A stretch of 63,904 nt of DNA, the filler included, from Reclinomonas americana ATCC 50394 (taxonomy: Eukaryota), in assembly GCA_048213135.1 (NCBI GenBank). It is 14 parts of 14 records of this genome, joined end to end, with 100 filler letters (N's around TTAATTAATTAA, not from the genome) between each part and the next. Parts side by side here need not be neighbours in the genome. Positions count along the whole stretch, not along the records: positions 6,096 to 16,449 come from AFZH01023296.1; positions 16,550 to 35,041 come from AFZH01023297.1; 12 more parts are not named here. One strand, written 5' to 3'. The translations under genes and the position numbers were made by a program. Shown in pieces: positions 3,630 through 27,800 of this stretch. The notes beneath the pieces are model-generated. The model had not been told where the DNA came from, searched no databases, and worked only from the letters and a program-made list of their open reading frames with translations. Position 1 is the first letter of the stretch, and the number at the start of each line of letters is the position of its first letter.

Positions 3630-3749
3630 GTCCTTGTCGGTCGCCCAGACGGTCGCGCCCTCCGCGACGAAGGCCTCGGCGATCGCCCGGCCGATGCCCT
3701 GGCCGGCGGCGGTGACGACCGCGACCTTGCCCTTCAAACGTCCTGCCAT
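3630..3749 (-). CDS. SDR family oxidoreductase, N-terminal fragment
   Basis: [32 protein letters not shown]ossmann motif read on the minus strand. Confidence 0.85.
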
Positions 3750-3774
3750 GTCGTTTCTTCCCTTGGTTTCCCGG

Positions 3775-4221: not shown

Positions 4222-4222
4222 C

Positions 4223-4897
4223 TCAGGCGGCTCCCGCCGTCTTCATGCAATCGGCCAGCGAGCGCTTCTGCTGGCCTTGCGCATCGAAGTTCTCCGGCGC
4301 GAGCCAGTTCCTGAAGCCCTGCCCGACCTTGGGCCATTCGCTGTCGAGGATCGAGAACCAGGCGGTGTCGCGGTTCTCGCCCTTAACCACCTGGTGCTGG
4401 CGGAAGAGACCCTCGTACTGGAAGCCGAAGCGCAGTGCGGCGCGCTTGGAGGGCTCGTTGCGGTTGTTGCACTTCCACTCATAACGGCGGTAGCCGAGCG
4501 AGAAGCCGTATTCACCGATGAGATAGACCGCTTCCGTCGCCATGCGGGTGCGCTGCATCGACGGCGAATAGGTGATCCAGCCGACCTCGAAGACGCCGTG
4601 CTCGGGCCGGATCTCCATCATCCAGAGATGACCCTTGGCCTTGCCGTCGGCTTCGTCGATCACGGCGAAGGGAATGATGCCGGCCTTGCCCGCCATCATC
4701 GTCAGCAGTTCGGCATAGGCCTCGCGGCTTGGCGGCAGCGTCGAGGGCAGCCAATCCCAGACCGATTCATGGCCGTCCATGGCCTGCCAGATGTCGTCGA
4801 GATGGCGGGCCGGGTCGAGCGGCTCCAGCCTGCAATAGCGGCCCTGCAGCACCTTGGCCGGCGGGAAGGAGCGGGGCGTCCAGTTCAGCGTCGTCAT
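4223..4897 (-). CDS. GNAT acetyltransferase, RimJ/RimL-like
   Basis: YRRYEWKCNNRNEPSKRAALRFGFQYEGLFRQH...RDTAWFSILDSEW. Confidence 0.9.
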   Translation of the reverse strand: MTTLNWTPRSFPPAKVLQGRYCRLEPLDPARHLDDIWQAMDGHESVWDWLPSTLPPSREAYAELLTMMAGKAGIIPFAVIDEADGKAKGHLWMMEIRPEHGVFEVGWITYSPSMQRTRMATEAVYLIGEYGFSLGYRRYEWKCNNRNEPSKRAALRFGFQYEGLFRQHQVVKGENRDTAWFSILDSEWPKVGQGFRNWLAPENFDAQGQQKRSLADCMKTAGAA

Positions 4898-5220
4898 GCC
4901 TTGATCGTCCTGCGCCAGGCGGAGAAGTCGTGAGTGATCTGCCAGTCCGGGCCGAGCTCGGCGGCGATGGCGGCGGCGAGCGCTGCGCCTTCCGCTTCCC
5001 AAGCGCTGCGCTCGGCTTCGCTGGCGAAATCGGAGGCAGCCTCGTTTGCCTCGTCATAGATCGCGTCGAAGGTGTCCATCCAGCTTTCCAGCCGGTCGGC
5101 GAGCTCGTCGGACAGATCGATGTCGTCGGCATCGACCGGCTTGCGCTTGCCCTTGGCGTCGATTTGCCAGAGCCCGCTCCTGCCGAGCCATTCCGGCGCG
5201 ATGAGCAACTGCCCGCTCAC
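4894..5220 (-). CDS. Small acidic hypothetical protein
   Basis: GTG start overlaps the upstream stop and its own stop overlaps the next ATG (translational coupling). Confidence 0.7.
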   Translation of the reverse strand: MSGQLLIAPEWLGRSGLWQIDAKGKRKPVDADDIDLSDELADRLESWMDTFDAIYDEANEAASDFASEAERSAWEAEGAALAAAIAAELGPDWQITHDFSAWRRTIKA

Positions 5221-5995
5221 GAGCGCGCCTTGAGATCGTCGCGGAAGAACGGGTTGAGCGGGGCCGAGGCGCCGTTGCCGGCGAAGCCCTTGAAGCTGCC
5301 TTCGTCCTTGATCAGGCGCGTTGCCTCGATGAAGGCGGCCCAGGCGGCGCGGGCGAGAGCTGCCCCGATCGAGATGCGGCGCGTGCCGGCGGCGGCGACA
5401 TCGGCAACGCTGAGGCCGACATCGCCATAGACCAGCGTATTGACCGGCTTGCCGCCGGCCGCCGCGACGATGGCTGCGATGTCGGCCGTCGTCTTCGGAC
5501 CGGGCGCATAGAGCACGTCGGCGCCGGCTTCGGCATAGGCCTTGATGCGTCGCGCCGACTCGTTCAGCGCGTCGGGATGGCCGGTCAGGAAACATTCGGC
5601 GCGGGCGGTCAGCACGACGCCGGTACCGGTTTCGTCGATGGCGCGACGGGCTGCCTTGACGCGCTCGACCGCGAGCTCGAAGGGATAGAGCGGCTCGTCG
5701 CTGCGGCCGGTGGCGTCCTCGATCGAGAGGCCGGCGACACCGGTCGCGATGCAGAGCTTGACGTTGGCCGCGACGCCGTCGGGCGTATCGGCATAGCCGT
5801 TCTCGAAATCGGCGTTGACCGGCAGATCGGGGACCGCCTTCACCAGCTCGGCGAGATGGGCCAGCATCATGTCGCGCGGCACGTCCTGGTCGGCGCGCCC
5901 CTGCGTGAAGGCGAAGCCGGCGCTGGTCGAGGCGAGGGCCTTGAAGCCCTGGCCGCGCAGCCAGCGGGCCGAGCCCTCGTCCCAGGGGTTCGGCA
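5217..5995 (-). CDS. Isocitrate lyase/PEP mutase family protein (5' truncated)
   Basis: PNPWD..ALASTSAG, PVNADFENGYA, GLSIEDATG, AYAEAGADVLYAPG. Confidence 0.9.
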
Positions 5996-6289
5996 NNNNN
6001 NNNNNNNNNNNNNNNNNNNNNNNNNNNNNNNNNNNNNNNTTAATTAATTAANNNNNNNNNNNNNNNNNNNNNNNNNNNNNNNNNNNNNNNNNNNNACTCT
6101 GTTTCCCGTCGACGTCTCAATGACTGCGTTGCGGGAGTACTTCTCCTCGGGCCTTCCTGTCGACAGAATCACCACTTCCTCGTCGCGAAGTGCGTACATT
6201 GTAAAAAGGCCAAAAACAATGCTTCACCGTCGAGTGGATCGATGGAGACAACTTGCAAATATGTGATGTAAAAGGACTACTTTGCAGCT

Positions 6290-6800
6290 ATGCATCGCGC
6301 AACACGTGGACGCACTGTACGCTGCAACTATGCATGCGAAGCGGCGCCGGCTGCAAAATTCTCGATCGTGATATAGATATTGCAGAGCGCTGCGCTCCAT
6401 CGCAGCGCGCTCCATCGCGCTCCATCGCGATCGCGATCGTCGAGCTCGTGCAACAGCTGCGGTACCTCCGGTACCAGTTCGCGTGCACCGCTGTGGTTGC
6501 CAATCACGCAGTCACAAAAGTGCGTGCAAGCCGATATCGCTCGATATCGATATCGAATGAGTTTGCACTCGATGTCCGCCCCTTCGCGCGCATCCCATGG
6601 CCCGCTGTCACGTCGACTTCTCCTACCACGGCAGCCTGTCGCTGGCATGCCAACCAATGTCGACGTCGATGATCATTTTCGTACATGTTGTTGACATCGA
6701 TATCCGCGCGCCTCGTACGCTGCGCATATGCACAATTGCATATGCGATGTACGCATGTCTGATGCGTCCCTCGCTGCGATCAGTGCGATGAGAGCGACTG
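6290..6800 (-). pseudogene. Probable decayed ankyrin-repeat coding sequence (eukaryotic contig)
   Basis: Fragments across frames read G.DVNNMYEND..QAAVVGEVDV..GADIECK and ELDDRDRDG..SALRWSA, broken by short duplications. Confidence 0.4.
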
Positions 6801-7470
6801 CGCGATCGTGGCTTGGCGAGCAAAAAGTTTCTGTTTCCGCACCCCACTCCGTCAATATACCAACGGGAAGAGATCGACGCCATGGCAGCACCAAATCCTA
6901 TCCGGATCCACCCGTCATTTACGGCAACAACGAGTAATAATAACGATTGACATCGTTCGACCAACGCACAGGTTTTGGTTCCCCTATCGTCCCTCGCCCG
7001 CACCAAGCGTGTGAGTGCACAGGTTGCTCAGTGTACATCACCGATACCGGCGCCGGCCAGTCACACTGCGCATGGTGATAGTTACTGTTTAGTATACTGA
7101 GGTTTCTGGAAGAGAAGAACGGAGCAGTCACACCACTAAATTTGCGCGCGCTGCGGATCCGGACAATCGGGGGCGCTTGCGCGGAATGAGCGATGAAAAA
7201 CCACACAAACCACTCACCGCGAGGAGACACACACACGCACCAACTCAAGTCGAAGGATATTCCTGCGCGGTCCGCAAGATTCCGCTGTGGTATATCTCCA
7301 AACGGCACACTGACCGTTTCCTGTGTTTGCTGAATCTGGATATTTTTACCGCCGCGTCGAGAAGGAGACACACCCGTGCGCGCATGAGCACCACATCCCT
7401 CACTAATATCAGGCAGCCACATAATGCTCTCGCCGATGAAGCGGCGGCAATCTCAACGATATAATATACC

Positions 7471-7512
7471 GCAGCGCGCAGCGCGCAGCGAAGCGCAGCG
7501 AAGCGCAGCGAA
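7471..7512 (+). repeat. Short GC-rich tandem repeat
   Basis: gcagcgc gcagcgc gcagcgaagc gcagcgaagc gcagcgaa. Confidence 0.8.
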
Positions 7513-7775
7513 ATACAGAGTATTCATTGCGTTCCTCGTCCTGTGCTTTGCCTCTCCCACCAGCAGCACCCCGCCTCACACAACCGCGACGAACGCACCT
7601 GTGGATAAGGCAAGCATGCAGCCTGCACAGCCACATTTTTTCAAAACTCCGTTCGAATTCAACCAAAATTTGTCTTTCTCGTTTTGGGTGGAGAGAAGAA
7701 AACTTCACACTCTTTTCGGCGTGGGCGCCCCCTGTGCAACACAGGCTCCTCTCTCTCTCTCTTCCCTTTAGAAAA

Positions 7776-10700
7776 ATGTCAGCACGCCGGCTATCGCTGG
7801 CTGTGCTCTCGTCGAGCGACAGTCGCCAACGCTCCAAACTCTTCAACACCGACTCATTCACATTCGTCATTCAGCAACTGTTCCGCTCACACGACGGACC
7901 GCAGCCGCTGTTCACCTCTGTTGCGCGCACACACACACAAGCACACACACGCGCACAGATTCCCTCTCTGTTTCTCACGCACAACGCACGCGTGGTATTT
8001 CTTGCACCACTACTGCTTGCCTTTTCACAGGTGGCATGGATCGACGCGTTGTGTTTTTTCGCCGTGCACATGTCCGCGTTCGCCACAGTCATGTCACCAA
8101 TGGTGTTGGCGGGCACGGGCGAAAACGTTTTTCTCGCCGCCGCACTGCTACCTCAGGTAACTACACTCCGCTTGTTTGATGTGTTTTTGTTGTCTACGAA
8201 TGCGGCAGCGAGTGGCCGTTTCGAAACCGCCAAACATGTGATTCTCTTCTTGCTCCCTTTTTGTGTTGCAGATGATGACGCTGGCGCGCTTCCATGTGAT
8301 CTTCGGCTACATTTCGATCTTTGTGGCCGGCCTCCTCGCGCAGGTGGTGCTGCTGTGGTGGTTGTCCAAGTCGAAAAAGACGGAGTCACAAACCGGTTCT
8401 GGACAAATCACTGGCAGCAGTGGAGGCTTGCACAGCATTCTGAGTGCCGCCTTGCGTGTGCAGGTGCGCACCTACTCTTCCTCCCTCCCTCCCTCCCTCT
8501 CCCCCCGTTTCCCCGTTTTGTCTCCCGTGACACACTCTTGCAGATTGCGCTGGCTGTTGGCCCGTTTCTAACGGCCATTACCCTGGTCCTGCTGCGGCCC
8601 TTGCACTGCGACTGGATCTCGCTGGAGAGCCTCAGCCTCGACACGAGCATTCACTTGGGCAATGCAACGTGGAGTTGCGTCGTTTCCACATCGCACAGAT
8701 GTAAAGAAACTGGCGAACGCTGAAAGCATCTTTCCAATGTCAGCGTGTAAGGAATCCACCAACATTGTGCTCGGCGTCATGGGCATCCTCATGACATTCT
8801 TCTTGGGCGCGCTCGCGATCCTCGCGCCTCTCATGTTGCGTGAGGCAGTTTTCTGTTTCGTTTTCCCCCATTTGTTTCGGTTTCTCACTCCCTCTCTCTT
8901 CAGCTCGCTGGACTTCCGCCCCGCCTCCCGCCTGTGGACGGCCGGATTCCTGAGTGGACGCTTCCTGGCCACTCTCAACGTGCTCCGCATGCTCCTTGTT
9001 GTTTCCCACACCTACGGTGCCCATCATGCACCTCTCTTGCACTTGGGGGTGTGCGCCTGCGTCGCGCTGGTGCTGCTGATCGTCGCGGTGCGCTACGTGC
9101 CGTTCTTTGTGGTGGCTGCCAGTCGCATCTCCACTTGTTGGTGCCTCGCGATTCTGTGCGCCGCCGGTGGCTGCGCGGCGGCCGTCCTCGTACCGGCAGT
9201 GACGAAGAGCAGTCTCGGAGAGAAGATTGCCACGCCGGCCATTACGGTAGGCGCCGTTCTGGTGGCACTGCCGATTGGCCTGCTGGTACACTGGTTGCAA
9301 CAGCGCTTCATCAGTCGACGCACCGACAAGTTCATCGACGGCACACTCGACGGCAGTGCCACGAGCAGCAAGGGCAGCAGCAAGAGCATGCTGCTCTCTC
9401 CGACGGAGCGCTACCTGGTATGTTGACACCTGTTTCATTTCCCCCCTTCCATGCGTCTCCAACACGCTAACATGCATGCATGCATGCAACACAGCGCGGA
9501 GCCAGTCGGTCCAACATGGGCAAGAGAGTGACTGTGGAGGAAGACAGCGAAGAGGCCGCCTTGCGGCACCTCTTCGCGTCGCCGTGGTCCGTGGAAATCG
9601 CCGCTCGCCTCCCACCGGCCAACACGCTCGAACCGTGGGCGCGCGCCATGGACTTGTTTGAGCTCGGTGCGCCGTGGCCTCTTTTCCATGCGTGCTTGCT
9701 TGTCACTGACGGACAAGCTGGTTTGTGTACGTATGCAGGCACTTTCCGATTCAGCGACGGAGACTCTGCCGCATCGCTCACGGTGCAGCTGCTGCACGCA
9801 ATCTATCTGTGGAACTACAACGTGGACATTGACCGAGCGCAGCAAGTGATTGCCGAGGTGGCCGCGCAAGACGAGGCCAAGCATCTCCTCCCGATGGACC
9901 TGCATCGAATCGTGCAGGTGGCGGCCAACTCGTTCAGCACCAACGACGACTCATTCAAGGAGGCCTCGTTCCACGCTCGCCTTGCAGCGCTGCACCACGA
10001 ATGGTGTCAGTGCTACGTCATCAGCATTGCTGCGTGGCGCAACCTGGAGACCGTGGGTCAACGCACAGGTACGCGCTCGTGCCTGCCGTTTCCTGTCGCG
10101 ATTGACATCTCTCCTCACTCATCACCTCTCGCTCACAGACGAGAAGCTCTTGTCGCTTCTTCTCTCACTGCGTGAGCAAGAGGCGACCACTGAACGCCTC
10201 TTCAAGTCCATGATGAAGGACTTTCCCAACAATGCCGATCTTGTGTCCTTGTTTGCCATGGTTTGTCGGGAGTTGAAGCTCACCAGGCGAATGGAGGCTG
10301 TGCTCACTCGTTTCTGCACACAGTTCACCTCCGAAATCAAGAACGACACACACGAAGGCCAACGACTGGACGAAGTCGCCGATGCCATGACCACCGAGTC
10401 TGGCTTGAATAACAAGACTCGCACTGCAGAGCGCGAATACGAAGTAATGGAAGCCGTGCAGGTTCGTGCAACAGCATCATCTCTTACACGCTGTCCAACG
10501 CAGTACGCTTATGATCGTGTCGTGCAGAAAATTCGGTCGTTTGCAACCAGGAGCATCAGAGGCCGTCGAGGAAGCGCGGTGGAGGGCATCGATGTGTACG
10601 ATGTACTCGATCTTGACCGCTGTGAGGGTCGTGACATGGATGCGAAAGGCAAGTCTGCACTCCATTTTTCTGCACTGCTTCTGCTGTCCTCCCTCATTTG

Positions 10701-13700
10701 ACACGCGCGCATGCAGTGCAAAATCTCGGGCGCCGACTGAGCACCACCGATGATGTTGTGACTGCTTCATCAGAGACCCTCACGGAATCGACAATGTCGA
10801 TGGAGAGCGATGGCGTGCCGCAAGGTGTGCATCACTTGGCAATTGTTGAGATCAACGACAACCTTCCTTACCATTGTCGCACGCAGCCGAACAGTGGACC
10901 ACAACCCGCCTGAATGACACTGGCCCACGTCCGCCGAAAGCAGCGCAGCCGGCTCGCCGAAAGCAATCCGTCGCAGCTGGGCCGGGTGATCGACGCAACA
11001 CGGTTATCGGCATTGATCGCAAGCAGTCGGTTGCCGCCTTCCGCAGACAGTCGGTGGTCGGTAGTCTCTACAACGTGAGTTGTCACGAGCAGTGTGGTCT
11101 TTGTCTGCTAGCCACGTTGACTCACTCTAGTCTATTGTTTGCCCACCAGGTCACGGAGCATGTTGCTCGCCATAGTGAGTCATCCAGAAACAAGCTTCGT
11201 GTTGAGTCGACGCGCTAATCCTTACCGCACAGTTGATCCGGTGGACACCGACAGTGACTCGGAGGCATCCAGTGGGCACGGATCAAGTACTGGACAGAGG
11301 TTTTGTGTTTCCAATCTCACCATGCGTGCATTCGCCCTCGACTCAGTTCTTCTCGAACACAGCTCGCGCCCCTCTGGCTCCCGAGTGAGTATGGACACTG
11401 ATTTCTCGACACTCTCCTCCTTCCGGCACACCATTGCACGCGAAAAAGTGAGCGTCAACACAAGAAGTGCATGCAACCAAGGGTGTCATCATCTGACCTC
11501 TTGCGCTAGAATCCAACCATGGACCGTGCCATGTGGGCACTGTTCCTCACGGGTCTCGTCTTCTTTGTGGTGCTTGCCTTTGCCGGCGCCACATCAAAGA
11601 CAACCATGAAGGAGACATACCATCGCCACGAGGTGTATGAAGTCGTTTCCGATGCTGGGTGCGTACATGTCTTCTCACTGAACAGCCTCTGCCTGTCCTT
11701 CATCTCTACTAACTTGCTCGCATGCAGTGTTTACGGCACCCTGGCCAGCATTGCCGCTCTCCAGATGCACTACTATGCGAAGACGAAGATGCCTTCGATT
11801 TCAGAAGAAAAAGTGGAAGAACTGCGAGACTATATTCACGAAAACTGCACGACTATTCGAGAGTCGCTGGATGTGCTGAACACGTTGACGTTGCGTCTGT
11901 TAAAAAAATGTGTGTGCGTGCGTCATCCTGTTGCTCACCACCGCGTCTGGTGAGAACAGCGAGCAATACGACAACGAATTCATCTTTGCCAACGTCTTCA
12001 CTCTGTTGTTCAACTCGAAGACTACCTACGCAGGACGAAAGCTGCAGATGCACTTTGACACGGTGACAAAACACTTCGACGACATGATGGTTTGCTCCAC
12101 TCTCCAACTGCCCCAGCACTGTTGCTGTGACCTTATCTTGCTTTGCGTGCGTGTGCAACAGTTGTACGCACAACAGTCGTACCAAAACGCCGGCACACCG
12201 TCGCTGCAGATGCCTGCATTTGCGGAGGGTGTCAGCAATGCCATTGCGTCCAAGGAAGCGTGGTACGAGATTGCAGACGAGCTGGTGGATCACATTGTCG
12301 TCCATGGACTGGAGATGAAGACGACGCTGTGGGTGCAGATGGGAATTGTGGCCAGGTGCGTTGCTCGCTGCCTTGCCTTTTTGCGTAAGCCTTTCTGGAA
12401 TTGTGCCCATTGGCGCCTCGCTTCAGTGTGATCGGTGCTGTGGTATTTGGACTGTTTCTGCCGGCGGTGGTGATGGTGCGCAAGAAGCTCAACGAGGGAC
12501 TGGCCACATGTCGCCTGGTGCCGAAGAAGGAGGCAGCACAAATGCGACAACAAGTGCAGGCTCAGTACCTGAACTATCTGGACCTGTCGGACAAGGCCCG
12601 CAATGTTGAGTCGCCACGAGCAGCACTGTGTTTCTGGCAGGCGCTCATTGTGTAATTTGTTATACAGGGAGTGCATCCGTCGACCGTGGTCAAGTCCAAG
12701 TTCCTGCCCACGCAGTGCGTTCGGGCGGACATGCAGTTCCTGCACAGCCTGACCTTCCGCAGTGTGGTGGTGCTGTTGGTGGTCATTGCCACCATCATGA
12801 CGATGAAGTTGCGTGAGATACATGAAGAAGTGATCGTGTGAGTACCGTGTTGCTCACATAGAGTGTTTTATGTATGCCAGCTGGACGAATACGGAAATCG
12901 CCGCCACCACATCGCATGCCATGCACGTTGTGGATTTGCTGATGCAGCGGACAGCCGACATTGACACGATGACATTGGCGGTGTGGCAGCACACCACGCC
13001 AGACGGATTGCTGTCACCGGACGACACGCTGGCGAGATTAGCAGATCAAGTGAGCAAAGCAGAAAAGTCATCGGTGGCCGCACTGGCAGTGGCCGACCAG
13101 GGTGGGCTGGATCCGGCCGCCGACGACCTTGAGCACGCCATGTTATACAGTGAGCGATGCCGGCCGGAGGACCGTGCTACCATCACGGACCCCCGATGGC
13201 GAGTGGACCTCGATTGCCTCCCGATGATTTCATTGGTTTGTACACGTGCAGAGATGCATGAGTATGCTGCGCAGCTCACTAACAGGCCTCTTCCTTTCAA
13301 CACAGATTAACAAGGTAATCGCAGGGGCGCGAGACATTGTCAACGCCGGAACCCGTGTCGGCCCGACCGAGGTGGATCTACGCGACATGATTTTCGCCGC
13401 GCATGGCCTGCTGCACACGTACTTAATCGAGAGCTGTGAAGTGAGTAGCCCAGCGGCGCGTGTCATTGTCATTTGCGGTCGCGCTAACTGCGCTCTGCAG
13501 TTGTTCAAGACCTCGTACGAGCACTACATTTTCCCGCTGCTGGTTCTCGGACAAGCAATGTTGGGTCTGGGAGTTGGTGTGGCAGCGATTGGGTTCTTCT
13601 ACTTGCTGGCGCCGTTGTTGCGCGTGTGCGACCAGGAGCTGCGGTACTTCAAGAAGTTCGTGGCCGGTCTGCCTTCGGGCGCCATCAACTCGGTGCCAGA

Positions 13701-16700
13701 GTTGCAAAAGGCTCTTCTTCCTCGTTGCGTGACGGCTGGATGCCTGGTGATGCTTCGCGAAAACGAGGAATACTCAACCTGTAAGTTCGTGTCGTGTGGT
13801 GGTCGCTCGCAGACTCACTGCTGGTGTCGATTCAACTCAATCAAGAGCTCAACGAGAGCGAATACATGTTCCGCGGCTTGACGTCGTGTTGCGTAACTTT
13901 CTGGATTCACTCTGTGTCTGCATGCCTGTCTTACATTGTGACTGTGTGATAACAGTGTTTGGACTTGTCCTTACTTCAGAGGCGGTAAGGAATGCACCCA
14001 AGAACCTCATTGCAAGCAGCAAACTCACGCTGCATGTTGCAGCTTATTGTCGAGTCTGTCAACAAGTCTTTCACGCGGATGCTCGGATATCCAGCCGACG
14101 CAATTGTGGGCTCGCACATCAAGGTGAATCACTGTGAATGTGGTGTGTGGCAGCACCCACTTGAATATTCATGCATATTTGCAGGCCATCATTCCACCAA
14201 ACATGCACGCCTCACACGATGCACATGTTGCTCGACACATGAGCCAATCGGGAATGGCCGGTGCCCGAATTCTGCGCGTGGACAGACCGACAATGGTTCG
14301 TGATTATGCTTGCACTTCTGCCTCTTGCTGCCGAGCTAGTCAGGATGACAATCGTCCCTCCAGGCCCGTCATCAAAACGGCAGTGACATTCATGTTCGCG
14401 TCATCGTCATCGAAGTCATGGTGAACGGTCGCCGTCTGTTCGCTGCCATGCTGCACGATATCAAGGATAAAAAACTCAAGGCCGAAACAGTTCATCGAGC
14501 GCAAGCAAAGGTAGTTTGTTGCTGTGTGCACCCTGCGATGTAATCGTCACTCAGCGCTGACATTCTTCTTTTAAACCCAGGTAACCTCCATGTTGTCCAC
14601 CATGCCACAAGCCACCATCATCAGCGACGCCACCGGCATGATCCACAACGTCAACGGAGCCGCTGTTGATCTGTTCGGATACGGCAAGCCCAGCGATCTT
14701 ACCGGTCATCACATCCGCATGCTGATGCCGGCGCCACACGCGGAGCGACACGATTCGTGCGTGATCCAATCTCAATCTCAAAGGCTGTTGACCGCTGCTC
14801 ACAACTCGTGTGTGTGTGACATTGCACGATCAGATACATCTCCTCGTACATTACGCGGCACCCACACAGTGCGGACATGAAGCACGGAGAGACCAAGTTG
14901 CGGCGGCCGTCCACACAATTCCCCATCATCTGCCTTTTCAGGGAACTCACACTCACACACACACGCGCAGATTCCGCGACGTGCAGGGACTGCGCAAGAA
15001 TGGCACCGTGATTCCGCTCCGTTACCACACTGTGGATGTGACAGTGAACAGCCAGCGGTACTTTCTGGCAGTGCTGCACGACAATGTCAGCGAGGCACAA
15101 GTCCGAGCCGGCTACGAAGAGCGCATTGACCGACTCAGTGGCATGCTGTCGACCTCCAATGATGCAGTTGCGCTCATGTGTCGGTCCGCTGAGAGTGCAT
15201 TCACTTCGCATCGCTCACCTGCACGTGTGCGTGTGCAGATCTTGTGGGCCGACCAGAATGGCATGATTCATTGGTGCAATGCATCCGTGTCGCGCCTGCT
15301 CGGCTACTCGACCGAAGAACTCACTGGTACATGCTCGCCAGCTGTGCTCGATGCCTTGGGTTGATTTTTGAGACTCACATTTTCGTTGGGGAACACAGCC
15401 AATCGACAAGCGTCAGTGTACGACGTGTTGCGGCCACTGAGCACGGTCGAGTTGCAGAGTGGAGCAATCATGGAGGCGGAGCTGTTCCGGAAAGATGGAC
15501 AACAGTTGCGTCATTGCGTGGAGATGGAATGCCGGCATGTCATGACAAGAGTGTGCGTTTTCAGAGTGCGGCTGGTGGTGCGCGGTATGCACACGGTGGA
15601 AGCCGGTGAGGTGCACACGATTGTGCGTGTGTCAGAGCCGAATGCGCAGCTGGTGCACATACACAAGCAGGAGCAACACAATGACCGATTGCAGGAGGTT
15701 TGTTCATCTGCCTCTTTGTGCGGTATTCGCGCGAACTCACACGGGCTGCTGTTACACAGCTGTTGCGCATGTCGTTCCCAGCGGCAGCACTGGACAAGAT
15801 CACGGCGTTGTCGAAGGACGAGGCGCAAGCGATGTTGAGGACGGTGAGCTGTTGAGTTTCGTGTTTCCTGTGAATTCACGCGCTCACTGGAGAAGCAGGA
15901 TATCGACGAGTCGCGATCACCGATGTGCACAATGTTCGAGTATCACGAGGAGGCGACGTGCATCTTCATCAAGATGGTGTCGGTGCAGCGGGTGGTGCCC
16001 GAGAGTGGTGCGTGTCTGCTTGGCGATGCGCGAAGTTCACAGCTGGCTGAATGCGGATGTGTTTTTCTTTGCAGGCGAAGTCGTGGCCGTGCCGCTGGTC
16101 GACAAGATCTGTGTGTTGCACGAGTTGTTCACGGCATTCGACGCACTGGTGCGACGACACAATGTGGAGCGCGTGAAAACGATTGGTGAGTGCGGGCGAC
16201 TGATGTTTGGGCATTGTTGTAAGCATCACCCTCATTGACAACGCGATCATGTGTGCAGGATCGGCGTACCTGGCGGTCTCTGGCATGTATGTGCCACGAC
16301 ACGATCACGCCACGGCAATCGTCGAGTTTGCGCTGGATTGCCGGCAGACGATTCTGCGATTGAGTCGCGAGGTGAGTCGAGATGGAGAAGACGTGAGAAT
16401 TCGCATGGTGTGGTGTGCTCATGTGATACGCTTCTCTCGTTGCTTCAGCNNNNNNNNNNNNNNNNNNNNNNNNNNNNNNNNNNNNNNNNNNNNTTAATTA
16501 ATTAANNNNNNNNNNNNNNNNNNNNNNNNNNNNNNNNNNNNNNNNNNNNATGGACTGCAAATCAAGTTCCGCACTGGCATCAACACGGGGCCGGTGACCT
16601 CGGGAATTGTGGCGGGCCTCATTCGGACGTTTGATTTGTATGGAGGTGCGTGGCGGTGGATCGAGCCCACCCTGTGCTCCAGCTTTGCTCATCTCCTGCG

Positions 16701-17015
16701 CAGACTCGGTGAATGTGGCATCGCGAATGGAGAGCTCGGCGCCGTTTGGTCGCGTCCAGCTGAGTGAGGTGAGGAAGAGGAGGGAGAGGGAGACGCACAT
16801 CGATGCACCTGTGTTGATGTCGGGGTGATTCTGAACGTCGTCGTGGGCAGTCTACAAACCGCAAAACGCGCGGCTTGTTTGAACTGGAGACGACCAGCGT
16901 GGAGAGTTGCGTGCGATTCCCGTCGACAGCTGTGTTGTATCTCACTCACGATACGTGTTGCACAGTCAAGGGAATTGGATATGTGACGACGTTCCTGGTG
17001 GTGCCGCAGGAGTAG
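7776..17015 (+). CDS. Eukaryotic multi-exon gene (about 40 introns): TmcB-like multipass membrane protein with 3 PAS domains and a C-terminal class III nucleotidyl cyclase domain; spans the spacer at 16450-16549
   Basis: Hydrophobic TM exons; PAS motifs VNKSFTRMLGY, VNGAAVDLFGY, WCNASVSRLLGYSTEEL; cyclase motifs VKTIGSAYLAVSG, FRTGINTGPV, FDLYGDSVNVASRMES, IKGIG; GT-AG introns of about 55-120 nt restore the frame; stop TAG 17013-17015. Confidence 0.85.
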
Positions 17016-17172
17016 TAATGTTACCGTAGTAGAACAGCTGCTTGTGACGTAATAATGCACATGCAGCGAGCGGTGTGTTTGGTAGAAAAAGGAAAAAGAA
17101 TGTGCACAAATATTAATATAAGATGAGCGTCGCAGCAGGGGTGTCCTCCTCGTCCCCACTTTCCACTCGTGA

Positions 17173-18906
17173 ATGGCGCGAGGCGCCCCGGTGCTCCTGC
17201 CCCTGCTGCTGCTGCTTCTGCTTTTGTTAGTGTGCATAAGCAGCACACAAGCACGGCAACAGCAGCGACGGCAACAGAAGGAAGCTGCTGCTGCGCCACC
17301 GAGTGCAGAGGACAGTGAGGAGTTGGCCGACGAGGGGGAGGAAGGCGACGCAGAGACTGGCGAGTACGATGATGATGCAGACGCGAGTGCAGAAGAGGAG
17401 TCGCCTTCACGGAGGCGAGGCGCGCGACCAGCAAAGACAGTGACGAAAGCGACGCGTGCCACGCGTCACGAGAAGAAGGCAGCGGGCAAGGCGAAGAAGA
17501 GTGGGAGCAAGAAGGTATCTCCTCCTCCTCCTCCCCCACCACGTGCGCCACGCAAGACAAGGCCAGCGGAGAGCGCAGAGGACGAGGAGAGGAAACCAAG
17601 TGCCTCTTCTTCTTCCGCTTCTTCTTCCGCGTTGCCAGTGTGGATGCGACCGGCTGAGCCGCTGCATTTGCCCGACACACACAAGCTGCCGTCGAAGCGC
17701 ACAGTGGCAGAGGTGACGTGAACGCTCTCCCCATCGTCACCTCTCCTCTCCTCTCACATGCGTTTCGCAGAATCGGGAGCACATCAAGTATCTGTGTTCC
17801 AAGTTCCTGGCGGGACCGCGGCCGGTGGCCGGCTATCAGCTGTGGGAGAGCGGGTTCTCTGAGTTTGGGCAGGACCGCTACGTGAGTGATCTGTATGGCC
17901 GTTCGCGCGAGGGCACGAACCACTCGGTGGTGCGGTCGCGACTGTTTGAGCACCTGCGACCGGAGATGCAGGAGCGCTTGCGTGGAACGGGTGCGAAGCG
18001 CGTGAAGCGTCGCTTTGCAGGCTTCTTCCTCGATGTTGCGGGTCGATTCGGGACGCCATGGCCCTCTTCCGATTGTTGCTGACTTTTCTAAATGCAGGTT
18101 GGTGCTGGCGACGGAGAGATGAACTCGAACACGTGGCTCCTCGAGCACTGCCTCGGCTGGACGGGACTTGCGCTGGAGCCGGTGGCGTCCAAGTTCTCGG
18201 CGCTGCGTCAGTGGCGCCCTCACTCGGTGCACTATCAGGCGGCGGCCTCGAACCGAGCCGAGGCCGAGTGCAAGTACAGTTGCGCCGTGTGTGTCGCTCT
18301 CGTGCTCGTGCTCGTCTGTGCATCTTACCCCCTCGGACACGCAGTTGAGAACGCACCGATGCGCTTCTCTGGGTTGCTGGATGTGGCGCCCAAGGGAGTC
18401 GACCGCACGCCCACGAGTGCTTTCACGGTCCCGTGTGTGCGGCTCGATGATTTGCTGGACTATCACGGCATACATCAGGTGGACTACCTCAGCGTCTATG
18501 CCGGTGAGAGAGAAGAAGGGGGCAGGGATGGGGAGAAGGAGAGGGAGACGGGGAAGGAGAAAGGAGAGAAGAGATAAGAGAGGGGGGAAGAGCGGAGAGA
18601 GAGGGAGAGGGGCAAAGGAGAGAGAGCGGGTGAAGAGGGAGAGGGAAAGGCGGAGAGAGTCAAAGAGCCTGAACAGGGAGAAGAGGTCCGCGATACTCAC
18701 TTGCATGACACACAGAGGGCGGGGAACTGGAAGTACTTCAAGGTCTCGATTTCGCCAAGAACCACGTGGAGGTCATCTCGCTGCGACAGCACGCGCGCCA
18801 CACCGACATTGACACGCTGTTGCGCCAGCACAATTACACCTTCGTCACCAAGGTCGGCGACGAAATGTTTTACGTACACAATGACTTTGAGCAGGAGGGC
18901 GAGTGA
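17173..18906 (+). CDS. Eukaryotic FkbM-family methyltransferase-domain protein with signal peptide/anchor and acidic/Lys/Pro-rich linker (multi-exon)
   Basis: Spliced FFLD|VGAGDGEMNSNTWLLEHCLGWTGLALEP and VDYLSVYAEGGELEVLQGLDF; Leu-rich N-terminus; stop TGA 18904-18906. Confidence 0.8.
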
Positions 18907-19420
18907 ACGCGAACAAGATGTAGGAGGCAGATTGCCGATCAAGATCGCTGCTTTACGGGACAGGGATATCACAACTGCAGCGACGACGGCCAGCACAATC
19001 ACAAGTCTGAAGGTCGCAGAGTTGTTGCTTTCCGAGAGGGCAGAGGATCACTTGGTGTGCATCGTACAACGTCGCGCGGCGAACAACAACAACAACAATT
19101 CATTCACCAACAAACAAGCAACAGCTGTCTTGATGACCAAGTTCAACCGTATAAAACATCATCACAAACACCAGTCTTGAGGCCTAGGCCAGCAGGATAC
19201 ATGTGTGTGCGCCGAATACCGACTTGCCGAATTCGATGTCCCGGATCCTCATTGGTAGCAAGCGCAACTGGTGCCTGTTGCAATGAGAGGAAACAGAACA
19301 GCCTACTGACAGGAGCACCAAAGACCAAAGTGTCCGATTTGGCGGGAAGCGTGAATGACTGTCTCCACGTGCTCGCGGGTTGTTGAGAGTGTCTGTCGCG
19401 GTCACGACGACGCGCTCACT

Positions 19421-22400
19421 ATGTTTCGTCACGATGACTACGGTGACGACGAGTCCGCGTTTATGGGTGGAGTGGTGATTGAGCAGGCACCCTCATTATC
19501 GTCGACTATGCGTGTGCGACGCGCTGACTTTGACGACGACGACGATGATGATGATGAGCAAGGTCACATTGTTGAAGACGATGGTGATAGTGATGATGAG
19601 GAGGAGGAGGAGAGAGAAGAGGGTCGCCGAGCGATGTTCGATGGCTTGTCGTTGACATCGAGTGTGTCGTTGGACTATCAAAAGGTTCTTTCCACTCACT
19701 CGCGCTCACTCACTTCCTTCACTCGCTTGCTCACGTGCTCGTTTGTGTGTGTGTGCGTGCGTGCTCCACGTTGGCAGGAGTTTGAAGAGGGCATTGCTGA
19801 GCAGCTGCGCGGTGTGTTGAAGGCGGTGGATAATCAGTTGTATGCGGGTGCGGTGGTGTTTGATTCTATTCCTCCATGAGATCAAGCGCTCATCTCTCTC
19901 TCTCCTTGTGTGTGTGTGTGTGTGTTTCCACGCGCGCAGATGGCACCTCATTGTCGTCGTCGTCGTCGTCGGCATCGCGAGCTGTCGACAATCGCATCAC
20001 GTTCTGCTCGTTGGACGACATTGTGCAGTACTGTGAGCCGTGGAGGGAGGCCTATGCGTACTTTCGGTGCGCGCGCGCGCGCTTCTGTGGCGTTGGTGTC
20101 TCCTTTTCTCCATCGTATTCACCCATGCCATTGTTGTAGCGTTCGTGGCGTGGCACCTCCGTCGGTTGCAGCCTCTGCGCCGCCGGCGGTCGTCGCTCGT
20201 CCTTCGATCGGTGGTGACACGTCGTTTGGCTCGATGGGTCGCACGCCGGCGCCATCGATGCTGCCACCGCACGCGTCGCGACAGCTGAGCGTTGGCGATC
20301 TGGAGGCCTTGGCAGTGGCCGGTAGCGGTGTTCGTGCTGTCACCACGCCCGTCTCGTTGCTGTCGTTGCGTCTCCACGTTGTTGTCATCATTGTTCTTCT
20401 GTCCGCCGCTCACTCCTCGCGCACACAGCGAGGACGATTGTGCGCCTGGCGTGGAGGAGATTATCGAGTCGCACGGCTACTACGAGGAGTGGTTTGCTCG
20501 CGACAGTGCCCTCGATGACATTGATGAGTCGTGGCTGCTGCCGTCGACCCAACACTCGCTGCATCCACGTAGCGCCCGTGCGCATACTCTCTCGGGCCCA
20601 TCCTCGCGCGCCCCGAGTCGCACCGCACGCCAGGCACCTTCGTCCAACATCTCCGCCGCTGCGACGAATGCCACCGCGACAGCGACGGCAGCTGCATCGT
20701 CGCATGCACGGCGAGACGCGGCCAATGTGCGCGCGCGCTTTCTACATCAGCATTTCCACGCTCGGTACGGGTTTCCGCTACTCGAGCACCTGTCGGCGTC
20801 AGTGGGAGCGAACAGCGGCGAAGGCGCGGGCAACAGCCACGCCCCGAGTAGTGGAGTCGGACCACCGTCGTCCAGGGGTCGCACTTCGTCTTCTTCTGTC
20901 GCTCGTCATGCGTCCTCCCGGGTGCCACCCTCGCCGACCAGCCGCAGCACGACAGGACGGCGGAGTCAAGGTGCTCAGTATGCGTCGTCGCTTGCGCCGT
21001 CGCGCAGTCGACCGGTGGGACCAGTGCTGGCGTGGGATTTGCCGTCGGTGTTGCTTGCCGCGTCAACAGCTTCATCATCTTCATCATCTTCATCATCAAC
21101 TACAACAACAACAATTGCAAATGACAGTGCCAGTCGATCAGTGGCCGCTAGTTCGGCCACCTCCACAGTCCCTTGGCACTGTGATCCGCACAATCGCTAC
21201 GGCGTGGTGGCTGTGGCCACTCGATCCACTCGCAGCGGGATGATTAGCTCCACGCGTCGAGTATCGGCATCGGTGTCGATGTTGCGGCGGTCGGCCAAGC
21301 GCAATGAGGCAGCGGAGAGTGCAGGACTTGGCGGCGGCGGCGGTGGCTTTGTGCGGTCGTCTCGCATGTCGATGCGTTCAAGTGCAAGTGGTGTCGGTAC
21401 TGTGGCGGTTGTGTTTCTCGAACTGCGTTCGTGTGCTTCGCGTGTGTTCATGTGCGTCTCGGTCTGTGCAGGCTTGACTGCTGGCTCTCGCCTCGTTTCA
21501 GCGGTGCGTTTGCCCTCGCATGACTTGACTTCAGCTTCTTTCATCTCACCTCAGCTCTTTCTCGGCGCACAGCAACAACCGCCATGGGAGGCATCTGCTC
21601 TGGCCGACCCGGCAGTGCACGAACGGAATCGCCGGCGTCGTGGACTGCCTCCCCTCAATCCGCAGGCCGCCGTCAAGGTGTGACGACAGTTCCGTGTTTT
21701 TGCTACTCGGTAATTACTTAAACCCAATATCGATGCGCAGGAGGCCATCCAGTGGGATCTCTTGCGTGGAGTGTGGCAAGTGGTTGCGCACACGCTGGCA
21801 CCACTGGTTGAAGCTTCGCTCATTCCCAACGCACCCGAAATCGTGGATGGTGAGTACTGACGATGCTCAATTCGCTGGCCACGTGTATGTCGCTGACAGC
21901 GCTGCTCCCAACCACACAGCTCATACGCTGTCGGCGTCACCTCTCGGTCCCAAGTGCGTACTCTTAAAAACCCACGCCAACGCTTCTTGCATCCTCGCGC
22001 TCACCGCAGCCATTCTTTCTGGTGCCACAGTGCCCTCGTGTCAGTGCCCGGTGCCTCAGATAACTCGCCTGCACTTTCAGTACCTCACGGCCGCGCAGGC
22101 CGGGGAGCGACGGGTCCGTACGGCTCCACAGTTTCGGTGGTTGGTGTCGGCGCTCAGCGGCAAGCAGCAAGCGCTGCTCCCGTGGCTGCCGCCGCACGCT
22201 CGGCCAAGCAGATTGTTCTTTCGCCACAGTTGTGTGTGTGTCGCACGCACGCCCACCATGCTTTTTTTCCCGTGCCTTACTCTCTTTCTTAGATTGGTGG
22301 ATGTGGACTCGACGACGCATGTGCGATTGCGCGGAGAACAGCGTGCGGCAGGTGGAGGTGCTGGCGACTGGTCGCGGCCGCACGCCTCTCAAGCGCCGTC

Positions 22401-24615
22401 TCCGCGCAAGAGTAATCGGGCGCACGGTCCATCGGCGACTCTCGATCTGTCGGCCTCGCTGACAGTGTCGACTGCGTCGCCGATTCTGCGCCGACAAATG
22501 AGCATGCCTGCACAAGGTAGAGTTGCACGGCGCGCTCTGTCACGACTCACACTCACTCCTTCATGCGCAGCCTCCGGATTCTCGACGAATGGCGCCGGCG
22601 CCCGTGCAGGCGGCTCCAGCGCCAGTTCCAATCGCAGCGTGCGCAATCTCGGTACACTTGGGGCGATTGCATCCGGTCTCTCCATCACATCGCCGTCGCC
22701 CGGCCCACTGCACGACATGGCGCCGCTGCCCATCTCCATTACACCACTTGCGTCGTCGTCGCCGCAGTATCCGCGCATGAATCGGAGTGCGGTGCCAACG
22801 AGGGATGGCGGTGACGAGCGCCCGCCTCTGTTCCCTCCGATCAATCGAGGCAGTGCGGCATCGTCTCAGCAACCTACGTATCGTCCGTCGGTCTCCGCGC
22901 AATCGGGCGACGTCATGCTCTATCGCGCCACCGCTGCCTCATCGTGGGGAGTGTCGGATCCGGTGCTGGCTGGCGCTCGTCGTGGGAGCATTGACATTGC
23001 TGCGCTTGCCACGTCTGTCATGTCGCCGACCTCGCGAAACGGCACGGCAGGCTCGCGTCTGCCACGGCTTTCCACGACAGGCTATGGTCGTGCTGGTGTT
23101 CCGAGTCTTCCGTCGCCGCGCAATGCACCCAAGCAGCAGCGGGCGGTGCATGGTGACGGATCCCCGCCGCAGCTGCAACCGTACTACGCCCGCAACGGCG
23201 CCAAGTTGCACGACTCATCTCCGTCGCCGTTGCGTACTCGTCCCCCTCTGTGAACACAACAGTGATGATGATGTTGATGGCTCACATGTTGAGGCACGCA
23301 CGCAACACAGACCACTTGGTCGTCGCAATCACGGTGCGCCTCTCCAGCAGCTGCAGCAACAGCAGCCGCAACAGCAGGCGCAGCTTCCGCTGCAACAGCA
23401 ACAGCAGGCGCAACAACCGCAACAGCAGCAGCAACGTGGGGTGTCGAATCGACCACAATTCGAAATGTCGGCGCACGGCGGCAGTCACACGGTCACCGTT
23501 CACAGCACCGCCGACGGCACGAGTGCTAGTGGCAGTCGCCGCGGAAGTGCTCCCTCGAAGAAGCCTTCACGCGTTCCCGCCACCGCAGGCCAGCCGCGCA
23601 TGCATCGCGTGGTGACTGACGCGTTTGAGAAGCCGCACCCTGTGATGAAGGGCCGCCGGAACGACCACCTGGCATCTCGGTGATTATATCCGCGCCGCCT
23701 TTGAGAGTCATTTGAGGTGCGCTCTGACACCGGGAGGGTTGTATTCCGATTGTGTAGTGCTGGAGAGAAACCGCCACTGATTGAGCGGTTGGGAACGCCG
23801 CCGACAAGCAGTCAGCTCGGTGTGTAGCTCCACTGCGACAGCTTATTTCACCCTTTTATTTTTTGTCCTTTCCGCTGACCCATGTTTGACGGCTGCACAG
23901 AGCGCGCACAGACAGCCGATCCGTCCATGCTCTCGGCGCAGAGGCGCGCCCATGTGGACGACTTGGTGTCTGCACCACATCATGTCTCGCGTTTCGCCGA
24001 CCTCAGTCCGCGACTCGTCCATCCAGGCGTACAGTCGCTGTGGGTGGCCGACAAGCGCCCGAATTCCTCTGCGGCCTCCGGAGTCGGCGGAGCACCGGGT
24101 GCATCTACGACTGCCAATGTCAGACCGGCGCGTGGTTTCGCCCAGCAGCTTCTCTCCATATCGTCGAGTCTGGCCGGTGAGCAACGCAGTGGCGGCAGCG
24201 CCGGCGTGGCAAACGTGGTGGCGGCCGTCTTGTCGGGGGACGAATGGGCGTCGGTGGCTCCGCGGCGACATCCTCGTGCTGGAGGGTGTGTTTTCCCCCT
24301 CTGCGCAACGCGTTTTCGTTCCACAGTCTAACATTGCTTCTCATGTGACAGCACGACGGCCGCAAGTGGTGCCGTCACACCACCGTTGCTTGCGGGTGAC
24401 AGGTCCCTGAGTCCGCCGATATCTCCTCGCCGCCGCCAGCTTCGCCACGGGTACGGCATATGATTGCGCTTCTCCTCTCCCTCCTTCTTATGCGAGTCAT
24501 CCTGTCTGACTGCTGCGGTTCGCGTAGACGCACCACGGCGCCCATATCTCCTCGAGTGATTGCAGAAGAAGATGTTGCGTTGAGAAGACCGTGTCTGCTC
24601 CATCGATATGGATAG
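19421..24615 (+). CDS. FAM149/DUF3719-like protein (ciliary family) with long Ser/Pro/Gln-rich tail; 3' end uncertain (23683 or about 24615)
   Basis: Spliced motifs LKAVDNQLY, CEPWREAYAYF-VRG, EEIIESHGYYEEWFA and PPLNPQAAVKEAI..VW resemble conserved FAM149 blocks. Confidence 0.65.
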
Positions 24616-24803
24616 CGTCTAACTGCTCATCGTCGCAGAGGTTGCGCAAGGCGGCGGCTGCTGACGCGCTGCAGGATCTGTTTGCCAAGGGCCATGCTTT
24701 GCAGTGAACATTATAATAATCGTGTGCCAACAACACTGGAGATTAGTAGTCTATAGTCTTCATCATCTAATTGCCATTCGATTATTCAACTTGCAACAAC
24801 GTA

Positions 24804-27800
24804 CTAGCAGTAATAGGAGGGCGCCAGCATGAGCTCGGTGAGCGTGTCCAGCTGCTCCTCGGAAAACAGAGCCTTGTCACGCGCCCACGTGTCTCGGTGA
24901 TCCTCCCAGAAGTCATTAAGAATTTTACGGACAGCCTCCTGCACGCAGTGGTCGGTGAGAGTCTGTGCACTCCACACACACACACACCCCTGCACGTAGG
25001 AGCACACTCACCGCGACTGGCGACGGGTCGTTGACATGGCGGGCGATCTTGACCATGATGACCGGAATGTGCGGGCGGACCTCGTGAGGCGACGCCATGA
25101 CAATGGCGGCAAGGCCAAGAATGCCGCTGTGTCGACGCAGCGCCAAGGATCGAACTGGGAGAACATAGTAGCAGTGAGCAACGCAACAAATGTAGGACGC
25201 GATCGTGTAAAAAGGCACACAACTGTCCGGGTGCGCCATGTCAAATCGTTTGCCCTTCTTCGGCAGCGGTGTCTCTGCCAGACCATCGAATCGCCGCTGC
25301 GCCGTCGTCGCATGTCCTCAGTTAGAACCGCGCACAAGGCAGGTGGGGGAAACGGGCGCAAAACGCAACAATCAGTTCAGCGAGCCGGCCTTCGGCTTCC
25401 AACGCCGGTACAAAGGTGGAGAGGGTGGTCGCAGCCGCCTCACGGACCTCCAACGTCTCGTCGGACAAGGCGGCCAGCATGGTCTCCACAAACTGGCCCC
25501 ACGATTCCGCGGTCAACATGTACCGATTCATGAACACGAACGGCCTGCGGCACGGTGAGGAACACAGTACCAGATGGCAGAGAGTGATAGAGACATGCAT
25601 GAGTGTCGCAACTTGAGGAAACACAGCAGCGATCCGCGTAGCAACCAGCTGTGGTCCGAGGCGCGCACCACCAACAGTTCGTGCACAAAGCGGATGAGGA
25701 AGTCGGTGTGATTCGCAGCCGTGAACGGTCCGTTTCCAAACACCGTCCCCGGTGCCGGCGGTTCACGTGCGCCGACGTACAGAGCGTGTGCGAGGCCGCC
25801 AAGAACCTCGTTGAGTGCCTCTTGAATGTACTGATTGTCGTCAAGGGAAGAATAAAATGAGCGTGCGTCAGCCATTGTTCCCCCCTGCTCGCCCACCAAC
25901 ACCAACCTCATCCTGCGTCACCGACGCCTTGACAATGTGCGGCAACAGCGGCTGAATGTACACCAGCAGAGCCGGCAAACGGGCCGATCGGGAGCACTCG
26001 CGAACACATTCCACGGCTGTCTTCAGGGAGGTGCGACACTATAAAGTCAAGGAGCACAGCAAAACACACACAACACATGGAAGCACCAACACATGCATCG
26101 ACATGAAGGATATTTGAGGAGATTCAACTTGCGGCGCGTCTCGACCGACATCGACCCCATGGCAGTCAGCGTGCTGACCATGGCCGCCACCTCGTCCGCG
26201 TCTCGATCCTCCGTCACCGGCACCAGCGCCTTCTTCTTGGCTCCCATCACAGGCTTGGACGACGGAGTCCCACTCGGGCCGGCAGCGCCGTCCTCTTCGC
26301 CCGCCATCATTCCCTCGACGGCGGCCATCATGGCTGCCACGGCCGCAGCATCACCCTCACCATCGCCCATGTCGTCGTCGTCGCCATTTTCGCCATCGCT
26401 GTTTCCCATTTCCACTTCTTGGTCGTCCTCCAGCGGTGACTCCATTTCCTCTTCCGCCTCCTCTTCGCGAGAGCGACTGCTCTCCGCGTGCGGTGGCGAT
26501 CGCGAGCGCGGCCGCGAGAATCCCGGACTCATCAAGTCGACACTGGGTGTGAATGGGCTCGAGAGTACTTCTGGTGTGAATGGGTACGGATCGACGGGCG
26601 TAAAGTCGCCGCCATCACTGGCCGAGCCGCTGCTCACGGCCGCCGGCGACGGCGCCGACAGCAAAAGTCGCGGGGGCGGAGCGGCGGTACCCGTTGGCTG
26701 ACGTGGAGCACGTCCCGAGAAGACACCTGTCGTTGCCGACGATGCGGCGGCGGCAGCCGCGGCAGCAGCAGCAGCAGCACCAGTCGTCGCCGACGGAGCG
26801 GCTTTCTCGCGCTGCAAGTGCAACGACTTTTCCAGCTCCACTGCCTCCACCACGTCGAGCGTGGCCAGCTCGGCCGCCCACGTGTCGAAGAACGCCATCA
26901 TGCTGCAAGGGAGGCCATCAAGGTAAGCGGGCAAACGAGAAATGTGTGCGGAAGACAAGCAAAAATTCACTCACCGCTGATCCACATGACTGCCGGAGGC
27001 AGTGGTGGCCGACACGCGGAAACCCTCCGGTGTCGAGATCAACGCCGGTCGCCACACGTGCTCGATCATCTGTAGCGGCAAACAGGGTTGTGAGACAGAG
27101 AGGAAGCAGCGGCAGCGAGGGCATGCTGGAGAAGAATAACGCACAAGACTCAGCAGCGAGCCGAGCTGCCGGCGCACTTGGTAGGAGCCAGACTCGCAGA
27201 AGCCTTTGATCTTGTCCAACACTCGGTCTGCGTGCGTGCGAGGCAGATGCGATAAGTATTAGTCTGTCACCGGCTGCCTTCGCGCAAATCGTCGACGCAA
27301 CAGTTGAGATGCGGCACACGCCACGAAAGCTCGATCAGCAGCGACAGCAAATACTGGATCTGGCGCAAGTGCACGGATGATGGAACTTGAGCGTTCGAGT
27401 TGAGGTCGTCGAGAACGAGGTCTGCGTCGGAAAGCACGTGTGTGTCCCGTGCGTCAATGAAACTATGTGGAGGCGTGACAGATAACAATTCGCAAAAGAA
27501 AAAAAAACGCACCGACGAGCCACCCGAGGCGACGCGGATCCTGTGACGATAAATTCACCAAGTTGGTCAAGAAACGAATCAGGATCGAGGCAAGAACACG
27601 ACAGCACCTTGTCGTACGACGAGTTGATCAGGCACTCGGTCCAGTCGCGCGCGCACTGCAGTGAGCTGTGCTGCAGGCCGTAGCGCAGTACGCTGCCGAC
27701 TTCTGTCCACTGCGTAACACATATACGAATCAGACACACGAAGCTGGCGATCATGCTTGCAGCAAGACCACAGCAAACTCACCAGGCGCTGCTGCTCCGC

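Follow-up and report, generated by a model that had tools for sequence, protein, structure and literature searches.

A C2-type half-cyclase gene in Reclinomonas americana, probably one subunit of a split two-gene membrane adenylyl cyclase

Introduction

Class III nucleotide cyclases form their active site at a dimer interface, with one subunit providing two magnesium-binding Asp residues and an Arg, and the other providing an adenine-selecting Lys and Asp, an Asn, the transition-state Arg and a further Lys. Here we analyse a gene of the protist Reclinomonas americana ATCC 50394 (assembly GCA_048213135.1) whose only cyclase domain carries the second half of this site and neither metal-binding Asp. 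The gene lies on the plus strand at 8272..17015 of a joined stretch of 63,904 nucleotides, which we call the window. An earlier sequence-only reading of this DNA took the domain for a C2-like half enzyme, either an obligate heterodimer subunit or a regulatory pseudo-cyclase. Judging from sequence comparison across the genome, we consider the gene to be, probably, the C2-type subunit of a split two-gene membrane adenylyl cyclase that works as a heterodimer with a C1-type chain.

A close described parallel is the family of mammalian membrane adenylyl cyclases (PDB 1AZS, 1CJK, AC8 8BUZ, AC5 8SL3), in which the catalytic residues are split in the same way (Table 1 of PMC6005667). Class III sites form across the dimer, and C1 or C2 alone is inactive (as described in parts of PMC9552081 and PMC8815786). 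The mammalian enzymes are the best PDB sequence matches and share with the window domain a KTIGS second metal site and the Lys/Asp adenine pair. They differ in carrying C1 and C2 on one chain, where we find separate genes, with just two C1 genes for a large number of C2 genes. Sequence identity with an animal C2 domain is 27%, and the first metal site is Ser in mammalian C2 and Lys here. The anchors are also different: two six-helix units with a cyclase after each in mammals, a probably TmcB-type anchor with a TPR region and three PAS domains in the window family, and in the window gene about nine helices and a single cyclase.

Soluble guanylyl cyclase (sGC) offers a second parallel. Its alpha and beta chains come from two genes, one with the two Asp and the other with the base, Asn and Arg residues, and the cyclase lies behind a PAS domain and a helical linker (PMC6005667). 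Animal sGC pairs are also treated in sections of PMC1435932. The window family, in contrast, is predicted to be ATP-specific and membrane-bound, with no H-NOX domain seen, and while the sGC beta chain keeps the second Asp, the window protein lacks both. By analogy, the window protein would work like mammalian C1/C2 and sGC alpha/beta, but it is a member of neither group.

Other systems resemble the window gene in layout or in genetic organization. The amoebozoan TmcB-TPR/PAS/cyclases (Mastigamoeba; Pelomyxa KAH3762999.1 and KAH3742583.1; Phalansterium) have the same domain order and are homologous in the TPR, PAS and cyclase parts, although the two scanned show one PAS domain by Pfam and none has the first-site Lys or a C1-type loss. 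In Dictyostelium, tmcB is tied to cyclic AMP (cAMP) signalling during sexual development (excerpts of PMC12750705). The TMAC family of Trichomonas vaginalis is likewise a large lineage-specific expansion of multi-pass proteins with a single cyclase domain, but there isolated domains of both groups are active alone (main text of PMC2914791, in which the words 'dimer', 'metal' and 'catalytic' do not occur). The chytrid rhodopsin guanylyl cyclases NeoR/RGC are heterodimeric membrane enzymes that use separate clustered genes with one shared subunit and alternative sensors (parts of PMC8815786 and PMC10622942). However, no catalytic residue is missing from RGC1/2, and the RGC1 cyclase works in isolation (parts of PMC10622942 and PMC7655827), so their pairing is not forced by reciprocal residue loss. 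In the main texts of the open-access papers searched, we met no account of a split TmcB-type cyclase or of a two-gene adenylyl cyclase from a protist. The C1/C2 division of labour is a known principle; what is added here is a many-to-two family of separate genes.

The cyclase domain of the window gene

The gene belongs to an intron-rich eukaryotic assembly of 108 Mb and is carried by two contigs, C7829 and C7830. Spliced alignment places the exons of the cyclase region at 15760-15843, 15899-16007, 16075-16185, 16259-16371, 16449+16550-16645, 16704-16768, 16851-16905 and 16966-17015, with exon calls based on splice signals and on conservation among paralogues. The seven introns between them are all GT..CAG and 55-82 nt long, and the spliced product is a linker plus cyclase of 227 residues. 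The last intron (16906-16965) has the donor GTTGCG rather than the usual GTGAG/GTGCG, at a position common to most paralogues.

The two metal sites are replaced as first reported for the spliced sequence. The first reads FIKM, with Lys encoded by AAG (15971-15973) in exon 15899..16007; the second reads KTIGS, with Ser encoded by TCG (16261-16263) in exon 16259..16371, immediately 5' of A-Y-L-A-V and just past the acceptor at 16258. Because the first codon lies in the interior of an exon, splicing is unable to alter it, and at the second site the reading frame leaves no other codon, which rules out alternative splicing that restores an Asp. The domain thus lacks the two metal-binding Asp of a complete, homodimer-active class III cyclase.

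The residues of the other half-site are all present. The adenine-specifying Lys (AAA, 16176-16178) lies in exon 16075..16185 and the adenine-specifying Asp (GAT, 16633-16635) in 16550..16645, an exon that starts at 16449. Exon 16704..16768 holds the Asn (AAT, 16712) and the transition-state Arg (CGA, 16724), and the last two exons (16851..17015) hold the phosphate-binding Lys (AAG, 16968) and the stop codon. These are the equivalents of Lys938, Asp1018, Asn1025, Arg1029 and Lys1065, so that by Table 1 of PMC6005667 the domain has the complete C2 set and none of the two metal Asp. The purine sites are Lys/Asp and not Glu/Cys, which suggests an adenylyl rather than a guanylyl type. The retention of Asn, Arg, Lys and Asp had been noted before, together with a likeness to the C2 half of mammalian adenylyl cyclases. 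The likeness holds for the full C2 set and for KTIGS, which is the animal C2 motif; it does not hold for the first-site Lys, since that position is Ser in 141 and Lys in 6 of 536 database domains. Three exon frames match PF00211 in order, and a profile built from the family retrieves AC8, AC5 and AC9 at E < 1e-59.

As first reported, the gene has a single cyclase domain. Spliced alignment with three templates found no second one in 6096-15700 or 17101-35041 on either strand, with non-overlapping search windows downstream: scores were 39-66, against 143-1032 for the gene's own domain. The mammalian arrangement of C1 and C2 in one polypeptide is therefore absent from 6096-35041.

The domain is interrupted by one of the 13 artificial spacers, each of 100 bases, that join the contigs of the window. 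This spacer (16450..16549; 44 N, 12 bases, 44 N) separates C7829 from C7830. Contig C5863, 93-97% identical, is continuous across the site, and C5621 spans it too, so the two halves belong to one gene with no exon missing and a real gap of about 0 bases. A chimeric join is ruled out by these contigs. The paralogues have the same introns, and three near-copies have Lys and Ser at the two metal sites.

A family of C2-type genes under selection

The window domain is one of many of its kind. Genome cyclase searches, whose counts are lower bounds throughout, and a spliced aligner run on 43 loci yielded 25 aligned C2-type domains including the window's; two near-copies agree with them, giving 27 copies, or about 15 loci once near-identical copies are paired. 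In trees the C2-type domains form one clade with full support. The first Asp site is Lys in 25/25 domains, encoded by both AAG and AAA; at the second, 20 domains have Ser, 2 His, 2 Thr and 1 Ala, and none has Asp. Asn, Arg and the base Lys are kept in all 25, the base Asp in 24 (the remaining one falls in an assembly gap) and the Arg484 equivalent in 23 of the 25 rows, one poorly aligned. Among 13 locus representatives, with overall identities of 46-75%, 41 of 185 columns never vary; the five C2 catalytic residues are all among them, as is the new Lys. That the catalytic set is invariant over such divergent representatives disfavours a pure pseudo-cyclase, which would have no need of it.

The window cyclase is under strong purifying selection. 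It differs from C5863 by 13 synonymous changes and 1 non-synonymous change, and its ratio of non-synonymous to synonymous substitution (dN/dS) is 0.11-0.32 against 20 other paralogue copies, with one further pair saturated. Many genes of the assembly are present as two near-identical copies with synonymous distances of about 0.05-0.13, and we infer that these pairs are haplotypes. The second locus (C5863, C960-C963), compared with window 11618-17011, is 93-97% identical from the second PAS domain to the end and 76-88% identical in parts of the middle, with a 5' end that can scarcely be aligned. It appears to be a recent duplicate, or the product of gene conversion, whose N-terminal part has diverged.

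Complementary C1-type genes

A partner for a C2-type chain would have to carry both Asp, and a genome search for TmcB/PAS-cyclase paralogues with both Asp but without Asn and Arg had been proposed from the sequence alone. Two TmcB-type loci have exactly this reverse code, each as a separate gene: C494b/C163b and C242/C4361. C494b and C163b have Asp in place of Asn and His in place of Arg, and retain both metal-site Asp together with the Arg484 equivalent; in C242 Asn is replaced by Glu and Arg by Lys, and its copy C4361 covers the first part of the domain only. In C242 the middle of the C1-type cyclase lies on a small piece between N gaps (2800-3290 of the extracted locus) and points the opposite way, which probably reflects an error of scaffolding.

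The two types share much beyond the catalytic code. The C1-type genes carry PF25474 (TPR_TmcB) and PAS domains in the same layout as the window gene, and the alignment between C494b and the window protein extends across about 700 aa (E 2e-44). Some 600 bases past the end of C494b, head-to-tail and in the same orientation, comes the C2-type gene C494a, and this arrangement is repeated on C163. Where most cyclases have the Trp of F-D-x-W-G, both types have Tyr (among the 536 database domains, 466 have Trp and 21 Tyr), and their linkers mostly end in [S/A]-F-P; both traits are absent from the Amt-type cyclases of this genome and from 10 outside TmcB cyclases. A TmcB-type gene with a complete site was not found in this genome by the searches described above.

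Several other loci, namely C248, C6782, C637, C12, C1858, C348 and C2315/C2269, were considered as candidate partners; none of them was identified as a TmcB-type C1 gene. C248:41111-42200 holds a strongly degenerate cyclase domain that has an assembly gap on its upstream side and, judged by eye, a receiver-like domain after it.

Weighing the alternatives

Some findings weigh against the split two-gene cyclase. The searches could have overlooked a complete TmcB cyclase whose exons are short, and the PF00211 search missed the window's own domain. The window gene does not adjoin a C1-type gene; such a neighbour was observed for just 1 of about 15 C2-type loci, and flanks of 6-10 kb at C162, C242, C494 and C163 held no cyclase except the known pair. 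C494b shares just 4 of 13 intron positions with any C2-type gene (p ~0.01 under a naive random model with predicted exons). There are other possible Asp donors among ten Amt-type copies, four of which are without Arg or without Asn and Arg. Finally, trees leave the origin unsettled, since C1-type and C2-type as sisters (approximately unbiased test, p-AU 0.68), C2-type with the amoebozoan Lys-type domains (0.66) and a third grouping (0.59) are none of them rejected.

The earlier choice between heterodimer and pseudo-cyclase falls in favour of the heterodimer, given complementary paralogues of the same layout and an invariant C2 set. As regulatory pseudo-cyclases, the C2-type proteins would act by binding ATP or a complete cyclase, whose activity they would adjust or block, and would give nothing to a working site. 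Such a role would suit the ratio of about 15 C2-type to 2 C1-type loci, by which many chains may be partnerless, and the presence of complete Amt-type cyclases in the genome; inactive mixed dimers are known among guanylyl cyclases, to go by the title of a reference in PMC1435932. It leaves unaccounted for the invariance of all five catalytic residues among proteins so divergent and the exactly complementary C1-type paralogues, one in tandem with a C2-type gene, which would otherwise be partnerless. We consider this role unlikely.

Likewise unlikely is a heterodimer whose Asp donor is an Amt-fused or other cyclase, instead of or besides the two TmcB-type C1 genes. All ten Amt-type copies have both Asp and six are complete, and the other four are likewise C1-like: C31/C4331 have Asn replaced by Tyr and Arg by Ser, and C284/C272 have Arg replaced by Tyr. 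Yet the Amt-type linker motif, N-I-L-P, is different, the layout, linker motif and Tyr are common to the TmcB C1- and C2-types, and three complete Amt-type loci could themselves serve as partners of the C1-like Amt-type chains. C31, C4331, C284 and C272 make up a second, independent set of C1-like chains.

A metal-poor mechanism, in which the invariant Lys replaces a metal ion and C2-type homodimers make cAMP, seems very improbable. It would explain why the Lys is strictly kept through both AAG and AAA codons, where a dead site has no need to keep one residue, and the Arg484 equivalent is kept as well. But the second Asp is lost too, C1-type paralogues are maintained, and natural Lys-type domains elsewhere share a chain with a C1-like domain. 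We know of no class III precedent for Lys substituting a metal ion.

An artefact, whether from mis-splicing, from chimerism at the spacer or from pseudogene decay, is hardly credible, for although the domain straddles a contig boundary, two contigs cross it, all 27 copies tell the same story, and the gene has an open frame and a low dN/dS.

Proposed mechanism and implications

For the split two-gene cyclase, mixed C1-type/C2-type pairs are probable because the sister genes all hold the same half-site and two loci hold the other half. The C2-type and C1-type chains would pair via the linker helix and the membrane parts, and the mixed dimer would have one site that turns ATP into cAMP and one dead site. 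The loops and PAS domains may regulate this dimer. Since about 15 C2-type loci share two C1-type loci, C2-type chains with divergent N-terminal parts would most likely feed different inputs to a common catalytic partner.

A broader and more tentative idea, to which we give somewhat less than an even chance, is that the whole TmcB-type family is combinatorial. About 15 variable C2-type sensors, each silent alone, would give cAMP only with one of two common C1-type chains, following the logic of a common subunit plus tuning subunits, and the dead site may be held shut by the invariant Lys acting against the acid that replaces the partner's Asn. Of the Lys-type two-domain proteins, 2 of 5 have an acid at this position of the partner, compared with 17 of 118 others, a difference too weak to count for such a salt bridge.

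If the split is real, the C1/C2 division arose in a protist by reciprocal loss between whole receptor genes, without fusion and followed by one-sided expansion. The family would then be a natural model of the intermediate stage that leads from homodimeric cyclases to the pseudo-heterodimers of animals, and would offer a testable 15 x 2 grid of pairs for the study of partner choice. Counts of 'adenylyl cyclase genes' in protist genomes may also include many chains unable to work alone.

Relatives and evolutionary origin

No close relative was found in public proteins, the best identity to any fetched domain being 39%; one protein search returned mostly fish AC9, at 28%. A library search ranked by whole-protein score gave multi-domain cyclases as its best 150 matches, down to 202 bits, and this ranking could hide single-domain relatives. 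Another search, which scored 8,000 candidates and no more, gave no close relative either, and the Atlas yielded generic PF00211 clusters.

Two groups of relatives bear on the origin of the family. The first consists of ten outside TmcB-type cyclases (Mastigamoeba, Pelomyxa, Phalansterium and one metagenome), of which 8 are complete and 2 lack only the second Asp. Because most are complete, the complete site is probably ancestral and the split seemingly derived. The Mastigamoeba TmcB-PAS cyclases P0055 and P0327 keep the first Asp and have Ser at the second, possibly a separate partial degeneration. The second group comes from the six Lys-type database domains, five of which are N-terminal C2-like halves followed by a second domain with both Asp and without Asn and Arg. 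These two-domain proteins are 5 of the best 150 library matches, three of them from Planoprotostelium (PRP87571.1), Phalansterium and Ceratiomyxa, and they show that a first-site Lys is tolerated in a C2 half with a built-in C1 partner. They resemble the window family in the Lys and in the C1-like partner domain, but have both halves on one chain, and Pfam detects neither TmcB nor PAS in them; the trees neither support nor reject common descent. In P0062, P0070, P0082, P0075 and P0121 the order is C2 then C1, and P0121 also has a FYVE domain.

It is likely that a complete TmcB-PAS cyclase was duplicated, that the residues were then lost reciprocally and that the C2 side expanded.

Architecture of the whole gene

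The gene model (8272..17015) has about 42 exons and about 1,875 aa and was guided by the counterpart copy C5619-C5621. It has an open frame and no stop in the counterpart codons, and identity to that copy is 93% in exons versus 80% in introns; its third-position bias is partly circular, as the counterpart guided the model. Two parts of the model are uncertain: the low-complexity linker and the start, which may be a few hundred bases farther upstream.

Hydropathy of the model suggests an N-terminal group of about five hydrophobic, probably membrane-spanning helices at 8296..9300. A probable TmcB-type TPR region follows at 9495..10461. PF25474 matches the window exon below its cut-off (E=0.0084, about 10306-10398) and is passed by the C1-type paralogue with 34.7 bits against a cut-off of 27. 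The region aligns with the TPR of the C1-like gene (E 3e-9) and with those of amoebozoan TmcB cyclases (E 3e-7 to 5e-4). Four further hydrophobic helices, starting at about 11528, 12345, 12749 and 13555, are arranged at 11510..13723 around two long loops, which are the probable sensing part. Then come three PAS domains: the first at 13982..14513 (PF13426, E=0.0027 on the exon frame, and paralogue alignment), the second at 14581..15166 (PF00989, E=6e-8) and a divergent third at 15239..15640 (PF00989, E=2e-5, and alignment). A linker helix with a motif like a cyclase-transducing element, common to the C1-like paralogues, spans 15641..15843 across intron 15698-15759, ends in S-F-P and leads into the cyclase exons. 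PAS domains followed by a C-terminal cyclase are the order of the TmcB-TPR/PAS/cyclases.

Surroundings of the gene

Positions 1-5995 of the window consist of bacterial-looking contigs with a G+C fraction of about 0.66, an intronless GNAT acetyltransferase frame (4223-5053, minus strand) and a PEP-mutase-family frame (5217-5995, minus strand); they probably come from a contaminant or an associated bacterium. On the other side, the next gene begins about 160 bases past the stop codon (17173-18900); its N-terminus is hydrophobic, a low-complexity linker is present, and it matches FkbM methyltransferases weakly, short of the cut-off (PF05050, E=2e-4). Further downstream, positions 25000-35000 have a strong positive AT skew over 10 kb, mostly 0.17-0.34.

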